Source of the DNA: Dictyostelium discoideum
Taxonomy: Eukaryota
Length of the DNA stretch: 64,000 bases
Assembly (NCBI GenBank): GCA_000004695.1
Contig: CM000155.2
Location: forward strand, 2,880,001-2,944,000
Reading direction: 5' to 3'
Part shown: positions 24,130 to 56,106 of the stretch, in pieces
Numbering within the stretch: the first letter of the stretch is position 1
Layout of the letters: every line of letters begins with the position of its first letter
Program-made: the position numbers and the translations under genes
The notes under the pieces: generated by a model
Database searches by the model: none
Told to the model about the DNA's origin: nothing
Seen by the model: the letters and a program-made list of their open reading frames with translations, nothing else

Positions 24130-24229
24130 NNNNNNNNNNNNNNNNNNNNNNNNNNNNNNNNNNNNNNNNNNNNNNNNNNNNNNNNNNNNNNNNNNNNNNN
24201 NNNNNNNNNNNNNNNNNNNNNNNNNNNNN
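24130..24229. other. Assembly gap of 100 N. An isolated n also sits at ~24317.
   Basis: A run of exactly 100 n characters. Confidence 0.99.
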
Positions 24230-25145
24230 TTTGTTTTTATATATTATGTATTCTAATTACGGACTCATCAACATACTCTTTTGTCACTAACAGATAAAGT
24301 TTCGTTTGATTATCTTNTGGTGAAAACATCAGCATCAGATTGTAATTGATCAGCTCTTTTATAACCCGTTTTGTTTTTGAGTGATTGAGATGTGATTCCA
24401 CCATTATTGGAAGTTGTGACAGCTTCATGTGTTGATCAAGCATGGGTGGTAGAGAGCTCGATAGCTTTTTCAACTAGGTCATCTGATGATTTTCATTTGG
24501 TTATTTCAATATCCCTGTGCAATTAATTTTTACTTGTCTCCGCCTCTCTAAATTCAACATTTACTTTGTACTTCAAATCATTTTTATCAATAGTAACTTC
24601 GTTAAATAATACACCAAATTCATCACTTTGATTGAATTCAACATCTTTAAATTCCAAAAAAGCGATATCTTCGGGTGGATACTTTTTATTAGATTTATTG
24701 TTTTTACTGTAGATCATTTTTTGGAACGAAAACTTTAAAAAAATAAAAAAATAAAAAAAAAATACTTTTTAATTTTTTTAATTTTTTTTTTTATATTTTT
24801 TTTTTTTATATTTTTTTTTTTTAAATTTTTTTTTTTAATTTTTTTTTATTTTATTTTTTAAAGTTTCGAACAATTATATATAAAAAAAAAAAAAGATATC
24901 CCTTCGGTTAATTATAGTAACAATACAGACAACAAGAATAATTATAAAATAAAAAAAAAAAAAAAAAAATCTTTTTTTATCTTTTTATTTTTATTTCTTA
25001 TTTATTTTTATTTTTTTATTTTTTATTTTTTTTTTAATTATTTTAATCCCGTGAGTTTTTTTTTATTATTATTTTTAATTCTTTTATATTTGAGATGATT
25101 ATTATTAATTAAATGACTTTGAGTTTTTTTTTTTATTTTTCTATG

Positions 25146-25320
25146 CCCAAAATTACCATATTAATTTCGGCAGCCATATTAATTTCAGCCTAAAATAGTT
25201 GGTCTGTGCATGCCAAAATTAATATGGCTGCTGAAATTAATATGGTAATTCTAGCAGACATAAGTCCCATGCCAAAATTATCATATTAATTTCAGCAGCC
25301 ATATTAATTTTGGCATGGGA
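25146..25320. repeat. Foldback repeat cluster: three copies (direct, inverted, direct) of a unit of about 45 bp
   Basis: Copy A (25146-25190) and copy C (25269-25320) are direct copies. Copy B (25211-25255) is their reverse complement. A and B form a hairpin with a loop of about 20 nt (taaaatagttggtctgtgca). The unit itself contains an internal duplication, CCATATTAATTTC x2. Confidence 0.8.
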
Positions 25321-25540: not shown

Positions 25541-27243
25541 TTATAATCCAACTCTTTCTAATCTATCATATTCATTTTGTAATAAACCAATTTCTTTTTT
25601 TATTTCATATTGTCTTTCTTTTGTTGTCACTGGTTTGAAATTAATTATTTCATCAGTATCTGACAACCAATTTTTAGATTTGAATAATTCATATAAATCA
25701 GAATGTGTCATCATTAAACGCAATACACCACCCGAACCATATGGTTCAATTTTAATTCCAAAAGTTTTCAATGTGGTTTTTAATTCAGCTTCTTTAATTG
25801 TATGTTTATTATCTCTGTTCATTTCCTGATGATATTTAAATTCATTTACAAAATCAGTGAATTTAATTTTGTTCAAATCTTTACCTTGTAAAATGTAATT
25901 TTTTTTAATATATTTCATATTTGCCGGTAATTGATCACTTTTCATCCCAATAAATGTTTCAGATTGTGGTATAACATCTTCATTAAATTTAGATTTATCA
26001 CTATTTTTCAATTTCCAATAAAATGATTCAGCTACATTTGGATCGTCCATATATTTACCTAACTTTTCAAAATAATCTTTATTTCCTTTGAATTCAGATG
26101 ATAAATCAAATATAGCAAAACGTCTTTATACTGATGCGCCTATCTTTATATTATCAGAATTACAAGTGAAAATCATATTCATATAATTAGGTACATTTAC
26201 TTTATCATTTTGATTTCTTTTACGAATGGTAATTAATAGTTCAGTAATAATATATTTAATACCCTCACCAACATTATTCCAATCCTTTACAATTGGTTCA
26301 TCAACCACCATTAATAGCTTTTTCTCAATAATATCATTCCATCCACCAAAAAGTCACAATTATTTACTGATGCGGATATATTATAACCTAAAATCTTTGT
26401 AATAAAGAAATTTGTAAAAATACCTTTTCCAATACCACCCATAAATAATCTCCACATTAATGCAGTCCTAAGTTTACGTCCTTGACTACATGCTAACCAA
26501 TTAATTAGATATGAATATTGTTCTTCATTAAGAGAACAAATTGCAACCTTCAAATGGTTCATAATCACATCAACACCCTCCAGTGTCGTGGTGCTGACCC
26601 CGTTTGGTTCGCTATCATAGAACCAACCTGCAAATTCATTAACACATAAACTACAATCATCTCGTTTAAAAATTCTATCTTTATCTGGAACCCAAGTTGG
26701 TGTACAATGATTTGGTTCATACTCCATAAACCATTGGTAAACATCAAAATTTGGATAACCATCAATTTTGATTATTCTTCTTCTAAAATATGTTTTCTCT
26801 GCATCTGAATACGATAAATCTTTTATTTGTTTATCACCTGGCACCCAAAATCTAAATATTGGTGAACCACCTATTTTAATAAAGTATGTTGATATATACT
26901 TTTTTATATTCTCAACTTCGTCAAATGTTTTTGCAGTTACACACATAATATTTAATGTGTTTACATCAAATGCTTGTTTTGACGAACAAAATAAATGTGG
27001 GTATGATTGATTAAATAATGACTTGTTCACTTCTACTGGTTCTTGATTTAGCGGGCAAGTTAACTTGGCTACTAAATCTTCTTGCACTAAATCTTCTTCT
27101 TCTAAATCTTTTTGCTCCACTAAATCGTTTTCCAATTTATCAACAAGCTCTCTCCAACTCTCATCTGAATCTCTTCTATTTTTATCTGTATGTCCAAGTT
27201 CTTTTGCTCTTTCAATAAGTTGTTGTTTATTAGGTTTTACCAT
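25541..27243 (-). pseudogene. Degenerate SF3 (D5/P4-type) helicase-like ORF, split into three pieces by a frameshift and a stop. It is probably derived from a virus, plasmid or mobile element.
   Basis: Three consecutive minus-strand ORFs lie at 26311-27243, 26126-26311 and 25541-26050. They carry a degenerate P-loop (LFMGGIGKGIFTNF), a Walker-B-like LMVVDEP and a motif-C-like MIFTCNSDN, in SF3 helicase order. A Cys/His-containing N-terminal domain precedes them. No intron signals are present. Frame breaks occur at ~26311 and ~26050-26125. Confidence 0.45.
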
Positions 27244-27259
27244 TTTATATAACTATATA

Positions 27260-27703
27260 TTATGTAAAGTTTAAAATAAAAAATAGAGAAAAAAATAGAA
27301 AAAAATATCTTTGTTGGTTTTTTATAACATTAATTTCAAGTCTTTCATAGTGTTTTCTATCAATAAAAACATTTTCAACTTTATATTCTGGTATCTCATC
27401 ATTGAACGCCAATAAAATATAATCATAATTATATAAATTTATTTCACTACCATCTGTCATATTATAAATTGATAGAGATTGATGTTTTTTGATTTTATCT
27501 AAATATATTTTTAATGATACTATAATTCTTACATCTCCGCTAATTATTGTATAATATTGATATGGTCTATTTTGATAATTCATTTTTATATATCGGTATA
27601 TTATGTAAAGTTTAATGTAAATGTGATGTAAAAAGTTGTGTAAAAAATTTTGATTTTTTTTTTCAAAATCTTTTGATTTTTTATTATTTTTATATTTTTT
27701 CAA
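27260..27703 (-). CDS. Small hypothetical ORF inside the mobile-element-like island. The true start is possibly the internal Met MNYQNRPYQYY, which would give a protein of about 105 aa.
   Basis: A 147-aa ORF with no recognised similarity. It lies between the helicase-like pseudogene and a frameshifted + strand ORF. Confidence 0.2.
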   Translation of the reverse strand: MKKYKNNKKSKDFEKKNQNFLHNFLHHIYIKLYIIYRYIKMNYQNRPYQYYTIISGDVRIIVSLKIYLDKIKKHQSLSIYNMTDGSEINLYNYDYILLAFNDEIPEYKVENVFIDRKHYERLEINVIKNQQRYFFLFFSLFFILNFT

Positions 27704-28213: not shown

Positions 28214-28299
28214 TAACAATATAAAAATAAAAACAATCACCTCCGCAAATTCGCAGTTTTTTGCGGGTTTTAATTTTATCACAACAACAATAATTATTT

Positions 28300-28590
28300 A
28301 TTTATTTTTTCGCGTGTAGAAAAGTAGAGAGTGTAGAGTGATTTCTGACGAACTAGTACGGATTTCACAAATACACAAAAATAGTGCACGTCATATAAAA
28401 TCAATAGAGAACCCCTATAACTCCTCTTACGTTATGCACGATATTGTGTTTGTGTAATTCTGTGCGCGTGTATTAAAATCAAGAGGGATTGTTAGTACGT
28501 TATCATTATACATGACGTACACAGTTTGCACTTTTTTTTATGTTTTCGTACTTTTTTTTACTACTCACTCTACAACTCTATTTTTCTACA
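28300..28590. repeat. Imperfect palindromic (foldback) element of about 280 bp with atypically GC-rich composition
   Basis: The left end reads GTAGAAAAGTAGAGAGTGTAGAGTGA. The reverse complement of the right end reads GTAGAAAAATAGAGTTGTAGAGTGAGTAG. Internal arms also pair (agtacgGATTTCAC...GTGCACGTCAT versus ATGACGTACAC...cgtact). CG dinucleotides (cgcgtg, gtgcgcgtg) are otherwise very rare in this window. Confidence 0.6.
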
Positions 28591-29837
28591 TATATATAAA
28601 AAATTAAAAATAATATTAATATTACATGAATATATGTATAGAGTAATATATAGATAATAAAAATATGGAATATAGTTTAGAGTGATTTTAGGTTATAGGA
28701 GCATAGCCGAAGGCTAATGCGATAGGGAAGCAGCAAAGCGTTCCCTCACACCTTCCCTCACACCTTACCATTTTATGACCTTCCAGAATATAGTAATTTT
28801 CAAGGTACTATTGATAAAAAAAAAAAAGCTAAATTATTTTAAATTTGTTTTCTTTTCACCAATGATAAATCTAATGATGGATTCACAATCATTTCGATAT
28901 AAAACAAATAAATTATTTATTGTTTTTTTTTGTAAGGTTGTTAAATTATAATTTTTCTTTTTCTTCTTATTATTATGTTTATTATTTAATAAATTATTAA
29001 TACTAATATCTAAAAATGTTATTTATTTATTAATTAATTAATTAAGTACATACTATTGGATGTTTTATACATGCCATAAACCAACCTATCAAGAATATGT
29101 TGAAAGTTTACAATCAATAATTTAAAATTGTTATAATATATATTAATAATTAGGGAAATTGAAGAGAATAAAATTTACATCCTAATCCTCCATTTCCCCA
29201 AAAATTTTCAAAAATAAATAAATAATTTAAAATATTAATACAAATTGTATGTGTATATTAAATAATAATAGATTAAAAAAAAAAAAAAAAAAAAAAAAAT
29301 TAAATTAAATTAAATTAGAATCAAAATTTCCTTCAAACATAATTCATGCTCTTCTATTCCTGTAAAAAAAAAAATTAAAATTAAAAATGTTGGGGTGTGA
29401 AATTTTAAAAATATGTTTGTTTGAAACAAAAAATAAAAAAAAAAATGGTGTAGATCGCCAAATTAAAAGCCAAGATTGTTCAAATATTTCCAATGTATTG
29501 ATGGATGCAACAAAGAATTGGAAAGAAATGCCAGAAAGTTGGAAAAATAAATTAAATTTTTATTAGTAATTTTTTAGTTTTGTTGCAAATTTTAATAATC
29601 AACAAAATAATAATAACTAGTAATAATAAAAAAACATAAAAAAAAAAAATATTTTTTTGAATCCAAACTTTACAACTTTAAAAAAAAAAAACTAAAACTA
29701 AAAAAGGTAGAGTGCACTTGTTAGGTTTGATGCTAATTATTTATTGATTTTTAATATTATTTTTTTTTTTTTTTATTTCTGGCAAACTTAATATGGAATA
29801 TCAGTTACAACCTGTGCAATATGAAAGCACTTGGTCT

Positions 29838-30002
29838 ATACATAGAATAGGAATGTTGTTTTTGTAAAACTCTTCACCTGTATTACCATGCAGGCAAAAA
29901 GTTCCCCTTCACTTAGAAAAGCGTTGAAAAGAATGGCAGCAAAGATTGCACCACCTCTAGTGAAAAGACCTGATAGATTGGTTTGCATATTATAAATTAT
30001 TT
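29838..30002 (-). pseudogene. Fragment copy of the ABCG gene, corresponding to 33020-33120
   Basis: The reverse complement is nearly identical to tataatatgcaaaccaatctatcaggtcttttcactagaggtggtgcaatctttgctgccattcttttcaacgcttttctaagtga. The translation [34 protein letters not shown] then diverges. Confidence 0.8.
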
Positions 30003-32301: not shown

Positions 32302-35300
32302 GTTGGTAATGAATATATTAGAGGTTTATCAGGTGGTGAAAGAAAACGTTTAACAATTACAGAAGCAATGGTATCATCAGCATCAATTACATGTTGGGAT
32401 TGTTCAACTCGTGGTCTTGATGCAGCATCAGCACTTGACTATGCAAAATCAATTCGTATTATGTCTGATACATTACATAAAACATCTATTGCATCATTTT
32501 ATCAAGCATCCGACTCTATTTATAATTTATTCGATAATGTATTAGTATTGGAAAAAGGTAGATGTATTTATTTTGGTCCAGTTGGTCAAGCCAAACAATA
32601 CTTTTTAGACTTGGGTTTCGATTGTGAGCCACGTAAATCAGTACCAGACTTTTTAACTGGTGTTACCAATCCACAAGAACGTATTATTAGAAAAGGTTTT
32701 GAAGGTCGTGTTCCAGAGACATCTGCAGATTTCGAACAAGCATGGAAAGCATCCGAGTTGTGTAGAGAAATGGAAAGACAACAAACTGAACATGAGAAAA
32801 AGATTGAAGTTGAACAACCACATCTCGATTTCATTGAAGAGGTAAGAGCAAACAAAAGTAAGACAAATACAAAGACATCAGTTTATACTACTAGTTTCCC
32901 AACTCAAGTTAGAGCTTTAATCGTTAGACATAGTCAAATTATTTGGGGTGATAAGTTTTCATTGGTATCTCGTTATCTTTCAGTTATCATTCAATCATTT
33001 GTTTATGGTTCTGTATTTTATAATATGCAAACCAATCTATCAGGTCTTTTCACTAGAGGTGGTGCAATCTTTGCTGCCATTCTTTTCAACGCTTTTCTAA
33101 GTGAGGGAGAGCTTTTTGCTACATTTTATGGTAGAAGGATTTTACAAAAACAACAGTCCTATGCTATGTATAGACCAAGTGCTTTTCATATTGCACAGGT
33201 TGTAACTGATATTCCATTGACTACAGTTCAAGTTTTTTTATTTTCCATTGTTGTTTATTTCATGTTTGGACTTCAATACGAAGCTGGTAAATTCTTTATT
33301 TTCTGTTTCACTTTAATTGGTGCTACCTTGGCTACAACCAATATGTTCCGTGCCTTTGGTAATTTATCACCATCACTTTATGTAAGTCAAAATGTGATGA
33401 CAGGTATATTAATTTTCATGATCAGTTATTGTGGTTATTCAATTCCAAAGAATAAAATGCATCCATGGTTCGGTTGGTTCTTTTGGGCAAATCCTTTCAC
33501 TTATGCTTTTAAAGCATTAATGGCAAACGAATTTATGGATTTAAATTTCTCTTGCGAAACTGAAGCAATTCCATATGGTACTGATCCAACAACTGGTGCT
33601 CCTTATGATAATTCGGTTAGAGTTTGTGCATCTGCTGGTTCACGTCCAAATACATTGGAGGTTAAAGGTTCAGATTATTTAATGGATGCCTTAACATTTA
33701 AAAGTGATGATCGTACATTAAACATTTTCATTACTTATCTTTGGTGGGTACTTTTCATCATTATAAATATGGTCGCAGTTGAATATTTAGAATGGACAAG
33801 CGGTGGTTTTACAACAAAAACTTATAAAAAAGGTAAAGCTCCAAAATTAAATGATGCTGAGGAAGAGAGAAAACAAAATGAAATTGTAGCAAAAGCAACT
33901 AGTGAAATGAAAGATACTCTTAAAATGAGAGGTGGTGTTTTTACATGGGAAAACATTAAATATACTGTTCCAGTTGGTAAAACTCAAAAATTATTATTAG
34001 ATGATGTTGAAGGTTGGATTAAACCAGGTCAAATGACTGCATTAATGGGTTCATCAGGTGCTGGTAAAACAACACTACTCGATGTTTTAGCAAAGAGAAA
34101 AACATTGGGCACTGTTCAAGGTAAAACTTTCCTTAATGGTAAAGCTTTGGAAATTGATTTCGAACGTATCACTGGTTATGTAGAACAAATGGATGTTCAT
34201 AATCCAGGTTTAACGGTTAGAGAAGCATTACGTTTTTCTGCTAAACTTCGTCAAGAACCATCAGTTTCATTAGAAGAGAAATATGATTATGTCGAACATG
34301 TTTTAGAAATGATGGAAATGAAACATTTAGGTGATGCTTTAGTTGGTACTTTAGAAACTGGTGTTGGTATTTCAGTTGAAGAAAGAAAAAGATTAACAAT
34401 TGGTGTTGAATTGGTTGCTAAACCTCATATTCTTTTCCTTGATGAACCAACGTCTGGTTTAGATGCTCAATCTTCTTATAATATTGTTAAATTCATTCGT
34501 AAATTAGCAGATGCTGGTATGCCATTAGTTTGTACAATTCATCAACCTTCCTCTGTATTATTTGAACATTTCGATCGTATTCTTTTATTAGCTAAAGGTG
34601 GTAAAACAGTTTATTTCGGTGATATTGGGGAAAGATCAAAAACTCTTACTTCTTATTTTGAACGTCAAGGTGTACGTCCATGTACTGAATTTGAAAATCC
34701 AGCTGAATATATTTTAGAAGCAACTGGTGCTGGTGTTCATGGTAAAACTGAAATTAATTGGCCAGAAGTTTGGAAACAATCACCAGAACTTCAAGAAGTT
34801 CGTAGAGAATTATCATCTCTTGAAGCTTCTGGTTCATCTTCATCCTCTAATGAAAATGGTGTTCCAAGAGAATTTGCAACAAGTATTTGGTATCAAACAT
34901 GGGAAGTTTACAAGAGAATGAATGTAATCTACTTTAGAGATCCTTTCTATGCCTATGGTAGTATTCTTCAAGCTGTTATGACTGGTATAATTGTAGGTTT
35001 CACTTTTTGGGATTTAAAAGATAGTTCATCCGATATGAATCAACGTATTTTCTTCATTTTCCAAGCTCTCTTACTTGGTATCCTTTTAATTTTTGTAGTT
35101 ATGGTTCAATTTTTAGTACAAAAAGAATACTTTAAAAGAGATTACGCTAGTAAATTCTATTCTTGGTTCCCATTTGCAATCTCAATTGTTTTGGTTGAAA
35201 TTCCATATACCATTGTTTGCGGCTCGGTTTTCTTCTTTTGTTCATTCTGGACTGCTGGTCTTTTCATGGAAGGTCAAAATGGAGCAAACTTTTACTTTTG

Positions 35301-36377: not shown

Positions 36378-36840
36378 TTGCTGATAAATCATCAAAGTAA
36401 GAATCTTTCAGTTATCATTCAATCATTAGTTTATGTTTCTATATTTTATAATATGCAAACCAATCCATCAGGTCTTTTCACTAGAGGTGGTGCAATCTTT
36501 GCTGCCATTCTTTTCAACGCTTTTCTAAGTGAAGGGAACTTTTTGCTTGTCTGCGTAGAATTTCACAAAAACAATATTCCTATTCTATGTATAGACCAAG
36601 TGCTTTTCATATTTCACAGTTTCCAACTGATATTCCATTGACTACAGTTCAAGTTTTTTATTTTCCATTGTTGTTTATTTCATGTTTGGACTTCAATAAG
36701 AAGCTGGTAAATTCTTTACTTTCTGTTTCACTTTAATTGGTGCTACCTTGGCTACAACCAATATGTTCCGTGCCTTTGGTAATTTATCACCTATCATTGT
36801 TGTTTATTTCATGTTTGGCTTTCAATACCAAACCGGTTAA
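36378..36840 (+). pseudogene. Degenerate fragment copy of the ABCG gene, corresponding to ~32960-33400
   Basis: The fragment reads ...tcagttatcattcaatcatt(a/t)gtttatg(g)ttct(g/a)tattttataatatgcaaaccaatc(c/t)atcaggtcttttcactagaggtggtgcaatctttgctgcc... It then has indels and stops, and later re-matches ttctgtttcactttaattggtgctaccttggctacaaccaatatgttccgtgcctttggtaatttatcacc. Confidence 0.8.
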
Positions 36841-53373: not shown

Positions 53374-53473
53374 NNNNNNNNNNNNNNNNNNNNNNNNNNN
53401 NNNNNNNNNNNNNNNNNNNNNNNNNNNNNNNNNNNNNNNNNNNNNNNNNNNNNNNNNNNNNNNNNNNNNNNNN
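53374..53473. other. Assembly gap of 100 N, truncating the retroelement's ORF2
   Basis: A run of 100 n characters. Confidence 0.99.
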
Positions 53474-53474
53474 T

Positions 53475-54812
53475 CTAAACTGAAGATTTGTGGATACTTG
53501 AAGTTTTGATTGCTTTGGTCACTTCATGTATTCTTATCGGTCTGTCTATCTCGAGTTTCTTGATTAAATCAACGTCTACTTCCCATTTTTCTAATAACTT
53601 CTGGTGGGTTTCTTCGTTATCTTCTTTCTCTTCATATTGATCTTGATAGAATTCAACAAATCTTTTTGCTATGTTCTCTTTATCTGATATGGTCTTATTA
53701 TCTTTATCTTTTATTTGGAATATTGATTTATCTTTGGCTCTGGATTTAAGGATACTTGTGAGGTATTTGCTTGGTGTTTCTTGATGCAGGTGGAGTTTTA
53801 ATTTGATATCCCATGCTTTTACCTTTCTTTCTTCTTCTAATATTCTACTTATTTCTTCATTGAATTCTTTTCTCATCTTTGGAATGATATCACTATTTTC
53901 AAGTAATTTGTGGATTACGTATTTTCTTTTGTTCTTTTCTTTCTTTATTTTGTTTTGTTCTTTTTTTAAATAATCTCTGATGACATTATTTTTAAATTTC
54001 GTCCATTCCTCCACTGATTTGATCTTATCTTTGTTCTTACTGATTAATTCTGATAACCCATCATGTATATGTTTGTTGTTGAGAATTTCTTTACATAATG
54101 TCCAAGGGAGTCTTTCTAGTTTGGTTGTTGTTGTTGTTGTTGTTTCTCTGTTGGTTTGTATTGTGATTGTGATGGGAAAGTGATCTGATTTGTTAAATAC
54201 TGTGTTGTGGACTACCAGTTTTGAATTTTGGTTTAGTAGTGTTGGATGACAGTAGATTCTATCTAGTCTCTTCATTGATCTTGGAAATGTTGGAGTGTTT
54301 TCTTCAATACCAGTATCTAGTAGCATGTCTTGGTCTATTATTTTACGTAATTCAGTACCGAAGAATCTGTTGCAATCGTGGTTGTTATTGAAGTCGCCTG
54401 CTATTATTTGATGGTTGATTGAATTATATTTTTTAAACAGTGATTTTGAGTTGATTATGAAGGTGTTTCTTTCAGATATAGTCGCTGGAGCATAGATCAA
54501 TAATATGTTGATAGAATTAAAGGAATTGTATTTAATTGATAGTATTCTACCATCATCGTCTTTGAAGTTTATTGATATTTGGCCTTTTCTTGTATCTCTA
54601 TTTTCTATTGCTATGCCAGTTCCTTTACCTGAACCATGATCTATTCTTTCAAAGTTGAACATTGTTTTGTGGTGGTTGAATCCATTGAAATTAGTTTCAG
54701 TTAGGAGTGCTAATTGAGTGCCAATTCTTTTTATCGTTTCTTCTGTTTTATTCTTAGCGTTGGTTGATTGATTACCTCTGCAGTTCCATAGTAATAATTT
54801 TAATTGTTCCAT
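53475..54812 (-). CDS. Retroelement ORF2, N-terminal apurinic/apyrimidinic-endonuclease-like domain (truncated)
   Basis: The ORF reads MEQLKLLLWNCRGN...LALLTETN...IAGDFNNNHD...DRIYCHPTL...SDHFPITITI. This is the EEP-family nuclease pattern of LINE ORF2. The ORF runs into the gap. Confidence 0.65.
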   Translation of the reverse strand: MEQLKLLLWNCRGNQSTNAKNKTEETIKRIGTQLALLTETNFNGFNHHKTMFNFERIDHGSGKGTGIAIENRDTRKGQISINFKDDDGRILSIKYNSFNSINILLIYAPATISERNTFIINSKSLFKKYNSINHQIIAGDFNNNHDCNRFFGTELRKIIDQDMLLDTGIEENTPTFPRSMKRLDRIYCHPTLLNQNSKLVVHNTVFNKSDHFPITITIQTNRETTTTTTTKLERLPWTLCKEILNNKHIHDGLSELISKNKDKIKSVEEWTKFKNNVIRDYLKKEQNKIKKEKNKRKYVIHKLLENSDIIPKMRKEFNEEISRILEEERKVKAWDIKLKLHLHQETPSKYLTSILKSRAKDKSIFQIKDKDNKTISDKENIAKRFVEFYQDQYEEKEDNEETHQKLLEKWEVDVDLIKKLEIDRPIRIHEVTKAIKTSSIHKSSV

Positions 54813-55684
54813 TATTTTCTAATACTACTGGCAATTGGAAACTTGGTACCATTGCTTGTAGTAATTTTATTGATAGGTTTTGTAGTAGTAGTAGTAGTAG
54901 TAGTAGTAGTTTTGTTTAGGTTGTAGATTGTTGTATTGCTTGTTGGTAATTGATGTGTGGTTGTTGTTGGTGTGGTTGTTGTTTGTGTGGTTGTTATTGG
55001 TGTGGTTGTTATTGGTGTGGTTGTTGATACATTAGTTGTTGGTGGAGTTGATGGTATTGATTTAGTTGTGTTTGTAGTTGTTGGTTGTTGGTTTTTATTA
55101 CTTGTGTTTTTTTTTTTTCTAACATCTCTTATTTCTTTATTGTTATATTCAGAGATGAAGGCTCTTATTGGATGCTTACTACCTTTTATAGCATCAATGT
55201 TTGTTTTAATGATTGAGATATCATCTTCTTTATTAAATAATAGTATGCATGAATATCTAATCACATCTGGTAGCATTACTATGTTGCATTCATCTATTAG
55301 TAATGGCTCCAATCCCCAGTTTTCTTTTACCATTTGATTGTTTATTTTTTTTATTATGTTTTTTGTAAATGTGTAAAAGTGGACATAGTGATATCCTGGG
55401 GTGTAAAGTATGAATTTTTGCAGTGGGAAATCTTCATACTTGAAAGTGCTGTAACACTCGTGTAATAATGTGAATTTTTCTTTTAGTATTCTACCGAATA
55501 CTGTTATACCCTTTTGTCTTCTGACAATGTTGAGAGTACCATTAACTATGAAATTATCTATTAATTTTGTTGAATTACTATTTAATTCCAAGGTATTTGG
55601 GTAGAATAACCTTATTTGAATAGTTTTTTTATTTAACTCTTCTTCGCCTAAGTTGAGTTCACCTTTAAGTTTATCGAAAAAATT

Positions 55685-55687
<3 letters not shown>
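54812..55687 (-). CDS. Retroelement ORF1 (Gag-like), with a poly-Thr tail
   Basis: A 291-aa ORF (MNFFDKLKGELNLGEEELNKKTIQIRLFYPNTLELN...). It sits immediately 5' of and overlaps the ORF2 start. Confidence 0.55.
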
Positions 55688-56033: not shown

Positions 56034-56106
56034 TGCTCGATGCAGGGATCGAACCTGCGACCGTGGCGTTATTAGCACCACGCTCTGCCGACTGAGCTAA
56101 TCGAGC
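56034..56106 (-). tRNA. tRNA-Ile (anticodon AAU)
   Basis: The minus strand reads GCTCGATTAGCTCAGTCGGCAGAGCGTGGTGCTAATAACGCCACGGTCGCAGGTTCGATCCCTGCATCGAGCA. The acceptor stem is GCTCGAT/ATCGAGC. The D-arm is GCTCAGTCGGCAGAGC. The anticodon stem is TGGTG/CGCCA with loop CTAATAA, giving anticodon AAT. The T-arm is GCAGGTTCGATCCCTGC. The discriminator is A. There is no intron. Confidence 0.85.

Follow-up and report, generated by a model that had tools for sequence, protein, structure and literature searches.

The locus lies on chromosome 6 of Dictyostelium discoideum AX4, and the 64,000-nucleotide stretch analysed here (the window) carries ordinary chromosome-arm genes, including ABC transporters, FANCI, and a methyltransferase. 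The window also holds a D5-like SF3 helicase gene, followed by the orphan gene DDB_G0293456 and by a 276-bp imperfect palindrome; the palindrome lies upstream of the helicase gene, ~730 bp from its start (27585), with DDB_G0293456 alone between them. The helicase gene is split in AX4 by a stop/frameshift, whereas a second D. discoideum assembly (GCA_054883475.1) has one gene model for it, encoding 615 aa; an ORF at 26311-27243 on the minus strand is 100% identical to one of the two AX4 gene products, DDB_G0293464. In a protein database search DDB_G0293456 was seen in D. discoideum only, and neither it nor the helicase returned proteins from D. citrinum or D. cf. discoideum, though both assemblies are in the database, so that the block formed by the helicase and the orphan gene looks lineage-specific. 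The features of the block and of the palindrome, in window coordinates, are as follows.

25541-27585, minus strand: D5-like SF3 helicase (DUF5906), split in AX4 into DDB_G0293464 and DDB_G0293454
27750-28213, plus strand: orphan gene DDB_G0293456, its stop codon 100 bp left of the palindrome
28238-28310, unstranded: CpG-rich leader between the DDB_G0293456 stop codon and the palindrome
28311-28314, unstranded: CGCG abutting the left tip, forming CGCGTGTA, as at 28465
28315-28590, unstranded: whole element, a 276-bp imperfect palindrome with tips TGTAG...CTACA and a longest ORF of 43 aa
28315-28341, plus strand: left terminal inverted repeat TGTAGAAAAGTAGAGAGTGTAGAGTGA, with three GTAGA sub-repeats at 28316, 28324, and 28333
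28342-28426, plus strand: left subterminal arm, with blocks AGTACGGA (28355-28362), GTGCACGTCATATAAAAT (28384-28401), and CTCCTCTT
28427-28482, unstranded: non-symmetric centre of 56 bp, with GCGCGTGTA at 28464-28472
28483-28564, minus strand: right subterminal arm, with reverse-complement blocks TTCGTACT (28545-28552), ATTATACATGACGTACAC (28505-28522), and AAGAGGGA (~28481-28488)
28565-28590, minus strand: right terminal inverted repeat, reverse complement TGTAGAAAAATAGAGTTGTAGAGTGA, matching the left at 24/27 positions with one indel

The mobile-element character of the neighbourhood is established: decayed mobile and viral DNA appears to form a lineage-specific island here, with the palindrome on its right-hand edge. 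A thug-S-like element lies 3 kb to the left, where window positions 25135-25320 hold forward, reverse, and forward units whose hairpins match the Rfam family mir-7131 on both strands (96 and 94 bits). At the corresponding locus of GCA_054883475.1 (L001, 6007-7580) these units make up the inverted ends, ~300 bp each, of a thug-S-like element ~1.6 kb long, whose left end falls within an AX4 assembly gap. This gap (100 Ns at 24130-24229) is filled in GCA_054883475.1 by at least 6.4 kb of sequence absent from the window (L001 1-6483), which includes a weak DDE_Tnp_4 fragment at L001 887-1111. On the other side of the palindrome, fragments of abcG (a PDR-type ABC transporter gene) at 29569-30000, 32975-33375, and 36403-36796 are duplicated at 87-93% identity, one of them inverted: the fragments at 29569-30000 are inverted copies of sequence at 33.0-33.2 kb. 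These duplications point to local rearrangement beside the island.

Symmetry and folding of the palindrome

Aligned globally with its own reverse complement, the whole element scores 7, where dinucleotide shuffles score -120 +/- 21 (z 5.9). Once the termini are removed, the same test on the interior gives a far weaker signal (z 2.4, 4/500 shuffles), and the termini supply most of the whole-element signal; the two ~85-bp subterminal arms, aligned directly with the termini removed, give a z of 3.5. A chance origin of the symmetry is excluded by these shuffle tests (0/500 for the whole element, 1/1000 for the arms), which establish it as statistically real. A single-strand DNA fold of the element forms a long hairpin (-39.8 kcal/mol, z -4.2), and RNA folds form long hairpins on both strands (z -5.3 and -6.0). 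These results describe no clean 280-bp palindrome: the terminal inverted repeat of 27 bp is strong, and the arms of ~110 bp are degenerate. The first-pass annotation, made from the sequence alone, had described an imperfect palindrome of about this extent, a description that alignment and folding bear out, with the strength lying mostly in the 27-bp ends; it had also held that symmetry confined to ends of ~26 bp would speak against the description, and since inverted symmetry extends farther inward than that, the palindrome is not refuted. A putative third arm at 28674-28688 was considered and discarded, its match being no better than that of shuffles.

The anatomy is likewise established. The sequence, coordinates, and complementary ends are as that annotation had them, the right end being the reverse complement of the left. 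The left end as then drawn, GTAGAAAAGTAGAGAGTGTAGAGTGA at 28316-28341, occurs once in the 64-kb window, even with 3 mismatches allowed, and one extra base per side gives the tips TGTAG...CTACA and the element bounds 28315-28590. Each end carries three GTAGA (or ATAGA) sub-repeats spaced 8-9 bp apart. Complementary internal arms had been named as well, and these prove to be real: the mirrored block pairs AGTACGGA/TTCGTACT, GTGCACGTCATATAAAAT/ATTATACATGACGTACAC, and CTCCTCTT/AAGAGGGA are collinear and nearly equally spaced in both arms, each of which is ~110 bp long. The blocks AGTACGRA, GTGYACGTCATRTAWAAT, and CCTCTT are common to the two arms, and ATGACGTRCAC is kept in both. Conservation from arm to arm is uneven, at 89% in the tips and near-random in the stretches that separate the blocks. 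Within the centre, a third copy of the GTGYRCGT...TAAAATCAA motif, this one direct, occupies 28462-28488, and the centre also forms a small competing inverted repeat with 28362-28388. The coding capacity of the 276 bp is nil, no overlapping ORF exceeding 43 aa.

Such folding raises the question of a transcribed hairpin-RNA locus, that is, an siRNA or miRNA precursor produced through Dicer processing of the stem and possibly domesticated from a transposon like the thug-S miRNAs. Any DNA palindrome folds equally on both strands, so the long folds of both strands, although they agree with such a locus, are generic. The T-rich tracts in front of both ends recall a T-rich motif described for Dictyostelium pri-miRNAs, upstream of their start sites (PMC6161686), but T-rich tracts are ubiquitous in this genome; the stem, moreover, is heavily broken past the outer ~27 bp. 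Neither the gathering score nor a threshold of E<=10 yields an Rfam covariance-model match in 28300-28600, and there is no DUSE promoter motif near the element, the nearest DUSE-like word being ~1.9 kb off in a coding region. A DUSE-driven structured ncRNA is rejected on these grounds, and the structured-RNA gene that had been among the original candidates is not supported (a bacterial-type promoter and terminator scan is uninformative on eukaryotic DNA). A transposon-derived hairpin, mir-7131/thug-S, exists 3 kb away (PMC4894637); thug-S-derived miRNAs are documented (PMC4894637, PMC6161686), and given that hairpin-forming transposon relics yield miRNAs in that case, the palindrome is a candidate small-RNA locus, albeit one that we consider very unlikely.

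Composition, target site, and copy number

The element has a GC content of 34%, against 23.7% across the window, and a CpG observed/expected ratio of 1.3-1.5, against 0.52, in agreement with the unusual GC and CpG content claimed for it at first pass. With 12 CpG in 282 bp (observed/expected 1.47), the segment falls in the top 0.4% of 280-bp windows, and the only two CGCG words of the 64 kb, at 28311 and 28465, are both here, each inside CGCGTGTA. Nowhere else in the window do four ACGT cores fall within 276 bp, and the element contains 4 of the window's 15 GTACG/CGTAC words. This foreign-looking composition is established and fits a sequence that arrived from elsewhere.

Clustering of this kind could alternatively mark a symmetric cis-regulatory module, in which ACGT-core/TGACGT half-sites would bind a putative dimeric factor (for example, bZIP) and control a neighbouring gene. 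Four ACGT cores so closely grouped nowhere else in the 64 kb, the ATGACGTRCAC common to both arms, the strong enrichment of GTACG/CGTAC words, and the setting of a GC-rich island amid AT-rich intergenic DNA are all in keeping with a module of this sort; it is its position that suits it badly, 100 bp downstream of the DDB_G0293456 stop codon and with no convincing gene start rightward before the abcG fragment. As a regulatory module would also leave the terminal GTAGA repeats and the two-ended layout unexplained, we regard it as highly unlikely.

The CpG-rich zone begins ~75 bp left of the palindrome, at ~28240, just past the stop codon of DDB_G0293456, and 28214-28314 contains 5 CpG in 101 bp; whether the leader at 28238-28310 is part of the element is uncertain. 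Within it lies a CpG-rich 7-bp stem (CCGCAAA at 28243-28249, TTTGCGG at 28260-28266), followed by a T run. To the right of 28590, the next 100 bp have 12% GC and zero CpG, and 28791-29560 has 18% GC, up to the abcG fragment at 29569. Between these, 100 bp right of the palindrome, is a patch of 47.5% GC (28690-28790) that has two tandem copies of TTCCCTCACACC along with a small GGGAA...TTCCC stem, and in which no Rfam match was found.

Target-site duplications were defined as repeats of at least 4 bp if exact, or at least 7 bp with one mismatch, with the boundaries shifted by up to ~8-10 bp, and none is present at any boundary within ~8-10 bp either way. At the canonical boundaries the flanks read ...TTTTCGCG on the left and TATATATA... 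on the right, that is, CGCG vs TATA, or TCGCG vs TATAT. The CGCG at 28311-28314 and its mirror TATA at 28591-28594 differ at four positions, all of them transitions. This CGCG may belong to the element, which would then originally have started there.

A pattern search and sensitive BLAST found no second copy or half-copy in the 64-kb window, nor was there a further copy or half-copy in four loci from D. discoideum, D. citrinum, and D. cf. discoideum, together ~100 kb, that were found through TRE retrotransposon proteins; the Dictyostelium DNA sampled amounts to <1% of the genome. The L001 locus of GCA_054883475.1, to which the DDB_G0293456 protein led, matches the window at 99.65% identity across 14 kb, and its copy of the palindrome (L001 10568-10843) is 100% identical and hence carries no polymorphism information. 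Pattern scans for the terminal and internal motifs in metagenome contigs, viral contigs, and prokaryote genomes gave no match, as expected for amoeba sequence, and a literature string search with 13-14-mers of the element gave no relevant match. A unique occurrence and a missing duplication, which the first-pass annotation had counted, if joined by symmetry confined to the ends, as evidence against its own account, are what is found within the window and the ~100 kb tested (<1% of the genome). The missing target-site duplication is a real weakness of any mobile-element reading; the lack of a second copy in <1% of the genome is weak evidence against mobility, and the modest interior symmetry (z 2.4) also counts against it.

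A non-mobile local inverted duplication would account for these absences, snap-back or template-switch repair having copied ~110 bp in reverse and the arms having later diverged. With no target-site duplication and a single copy in the DNA searched, such an origin draws further credit from the other inverted duplications of the locus (abcG, 29569-30000 vs 33.0-33.2 kb). Against it stands the very uneven conservation, 89% in the tips and near-random between blocks, as do tips that carry internal sub-repeats and a TGTNR end; the composition, besides, is so sharply unlike that of the flanks that the source sequence would itself have to be foreign. We consider a local duplication improbable.

Known element families and the adjacent virus-like island

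With MITE and foldback elements the palindrome shares its size of 276 bp, the lack of coding sequence, terminal inverted repeats with sub-repeats, pairing arms, and a composition unlike that of the insertion context, whereas it differs from them in having no target-site duplication, no multiple copies in the DNA searched, and arms far more diverged than the tips. The foldback or MITE identity, proposed at first pass beside a fused pair of terminal repeats from a deleted DNA transposon or DIRS-like element, therefore stands as regards the structural hallmarks (terminal repeats with sub-repeats, small size, no ORF, hairpin, and composition); the duplication is lacking, and no second copy turned up in the DNA searched (<1% of the genome).

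The enzymes of Ginger1, Ginger2, and Tdd-4/Tdd-5 transposons are rve-type integrases. TGTNR termini have been reported for Gypsy LTRs and for the Ginger1 and Ginger2/Tdd transposons, including Dictyostelium TDD-4/5, whose inverted repeats are long (260-297 bp), and Ginger2 has a target preference for RTATAY (PMC2836005). TGTAG at both ends of the palindrome agrees with the TGTNR pattern of Tdd-4/Tdd-5 (Ginger2), a likeness by tip pattern, and the right flank together with the terminal A (28590-28595, ATATAT) resembles the RTATAY preference. By analogy, and given those 260-297-bp inverted repeats, an internally deleted TDD-4/5 copy could resemble the element; the 5-bp (Tdd) or 4-bp (other Ginger2) duplication is, in contrast, absent. 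A tblastn search with the Tdd-4/5 integrase domains (PMC2836005 supplement) found no Tdd-type integrase in the window or the fetched D. discoideum loci, and gave one weak match (32% over 40 aa, E 4e-4) in the zinc-finger region of an integrase gene in a D. cf. discoideum locus (L009).

The thug-S-like element 3 kb away has inverted repeat units able to form hairpins, as the palindrome does, but here it is ~1.6 kb long with ~300-bp inverted ends, unlike the 276-bp palindrome, and the palindrome does not align with the thug-S ends or hairpin units (L001 6007-7580, window 25135-25320). A solo LTR (Skipper, DGLT-A/P) was also considered and rejected: TG...CA ends are present, but there is no 4-6 bp duplication, and arm symmetry over ~110 bp is no LTR trait. 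A tRNA-targeted element such as DGLT-A was rejected as well, the nearest tRNA gene being 27 kb from the palindrome.

The helicase provides a link to viruses. All its relatives are distant, at ~30% identity; the best comes from the dictyostelid Synstelium polycarpum and the others are metagenomic. Two of the latter reside on contigs of 17-21 kb, with the gene 0.1-1.5 kb from the contig end and beside an rve+chromodomain integrase, and on both contigs there is a neighbouring ORF of ~600 aa, which has a weak hit to DNA_pol_B_2 (protein-primed polymerase) on one and no Pfam hit on the other. This marks the contigs as bearing a polinton-like or virophage-like gene set, the polymerase hit being weak and on one contig; polintons have been reported in dictyostelids (PMC3671162). 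To judge from its sequence relatives, the D. discoideum helicase gene probably survives from a virus-like element that once integrated here. In the sequence that fills the AX4 gap, a split ORF of ~520 aa (L001 3565->1873) and an ORF of 134 aa (4073->3669) have no match in Pfam, PHROGs, or PDB. A guess that these ORFs are capsid genes is unsupported, as they match nothing in those three databases and do not resemble the genes of the metagenomic contigs that carry the helicase.

The palindrome might never have moved independently, and be instead a fossil cis-element (a terminus or replication origin) of the adjacent endogenous virus-like element. The helicase or an integrase would once have acted on it, and the GTAGA repeats and ACGT-core blocks are proposed to be protein-binding iterons. 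Proximity to the helicase gene, with the orphan gene alone between, agrees with the arrangement in the related metagenomic genomes, where the helicase is so close to the contig end and adjacent to an rve integrase; the TG...CA tips suit rve integrases (PMC2836005), the sub-repeats are iteron-like, the ACGT/GTACG word cluster is unique, and the drop in GC past 28590 (12%, later 18%, interrupted by the 47.5% patch) up to abcG at 29569 fits an island boundary. A terminus of this kind should, however, be a single arm, and the palindrome is self-contained, with both tips facing outward. No matching arm is present in the 6.4 kb at the far side of the island (L001; the left end of the island lies beyond that DNA), the metagenomic relatives have no comparable palindrome by the helicase, the link through the helicase is one of ~30% protein identity, and the capsid-like view of the other island ORFs has no database match. 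We regard this origin as possible but unlikely.

Comparison with the terminal inverted repeats of polinton-like viruses, Mavericks, and virophages leads to a similar picture: TG...CA-type ends and an adjacent helicase with relatives on rve-integrase contigs are shared, while the arms of the palindrome lie side by side where theirs flank a genome of 15-20 kb, and a partner arm and integrase and polymerase genes were not found in the D. discoideum island. One could go further and suppose that the palindrome is the minimal two-ended cis-element of an undescribed endogenous polinton-like or virophage-like element, the body of which would lie largely in the AX4 gap at 24130-24229, and that a helper integrase or helicase can still recognise it, which would make the palindrome a miniature replicon or transposon of viral origin, outside the known Tdd, DDT, and thug families. 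To this proposal we assign a low probability.

Origin of the element

The TGTAG tips match the TGTNR pattern, and rve-type integrases stand beside the metagenomic homologues of the helicase; we therefore judge a deletion derivative mobilised in trans to be the most likely origin, and we tentatively hypothesize that the palindrome belongs to the MITE/foldback type, as a miniature DNA element with two ends and no genes, once mobilised by an rve/DDE-type enzyme and now decayed. Mobility, the type of enzyme, and an origin by internal deletion are inferred. A cut-and-paste transposon or an integrating DNA virus that lost its interior and kept ~110 bp per end would leave such a remnant. The 27-bp ends, with their three GTAGA sub-repeats and TGTAG tip, would have been bound and cut by a DDE transposase or an rve-type integrase encoded elsewhere in the genome, so that the whole unit moved in trans, and either strand, when transcribed or unwound, would fold into a long hairpin. 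Because the arms have diverged and no flanking duplication remains, the present copy is probably old and immobile.

The element is real yet probably ordinary, its anatomy placing it with the MITE/foldback type but in no named Dictyostelium family, and a specialist is unlikely to be surprised by it; as the evidence stands it opens no long-standing question. If MITE-like, it would lengthen the short list of D. discoideum DNA transposons (Tdd, DDT, and thug) by a small non-autonomous element, connected through its TGTNR tips with integrase-type enzymes. A by-product of the analysis may matter more: a 100-N gap in the AX4 reference conceals at least 6.4 kb of the lineage-specific island, to which the helicase with relatives in polinton-like or virophage-like genomes belongs.

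A second gap of 100 Ns in the window, at 53374-53473, is abutted by non-LTR retrotransposon ORFs (53475-55687 and 56034-56106), among them an Exo_endo_phos endonuclease ORF, 93-98% identical to TRE-type copies elsewhere; these ORFs are found immediately 3' of a tRNA-Ile(AAU) gene on the minus strand. A TRE next to a tRNA gene is the usual arrangement of these tRNA-targeted retrotransposons.
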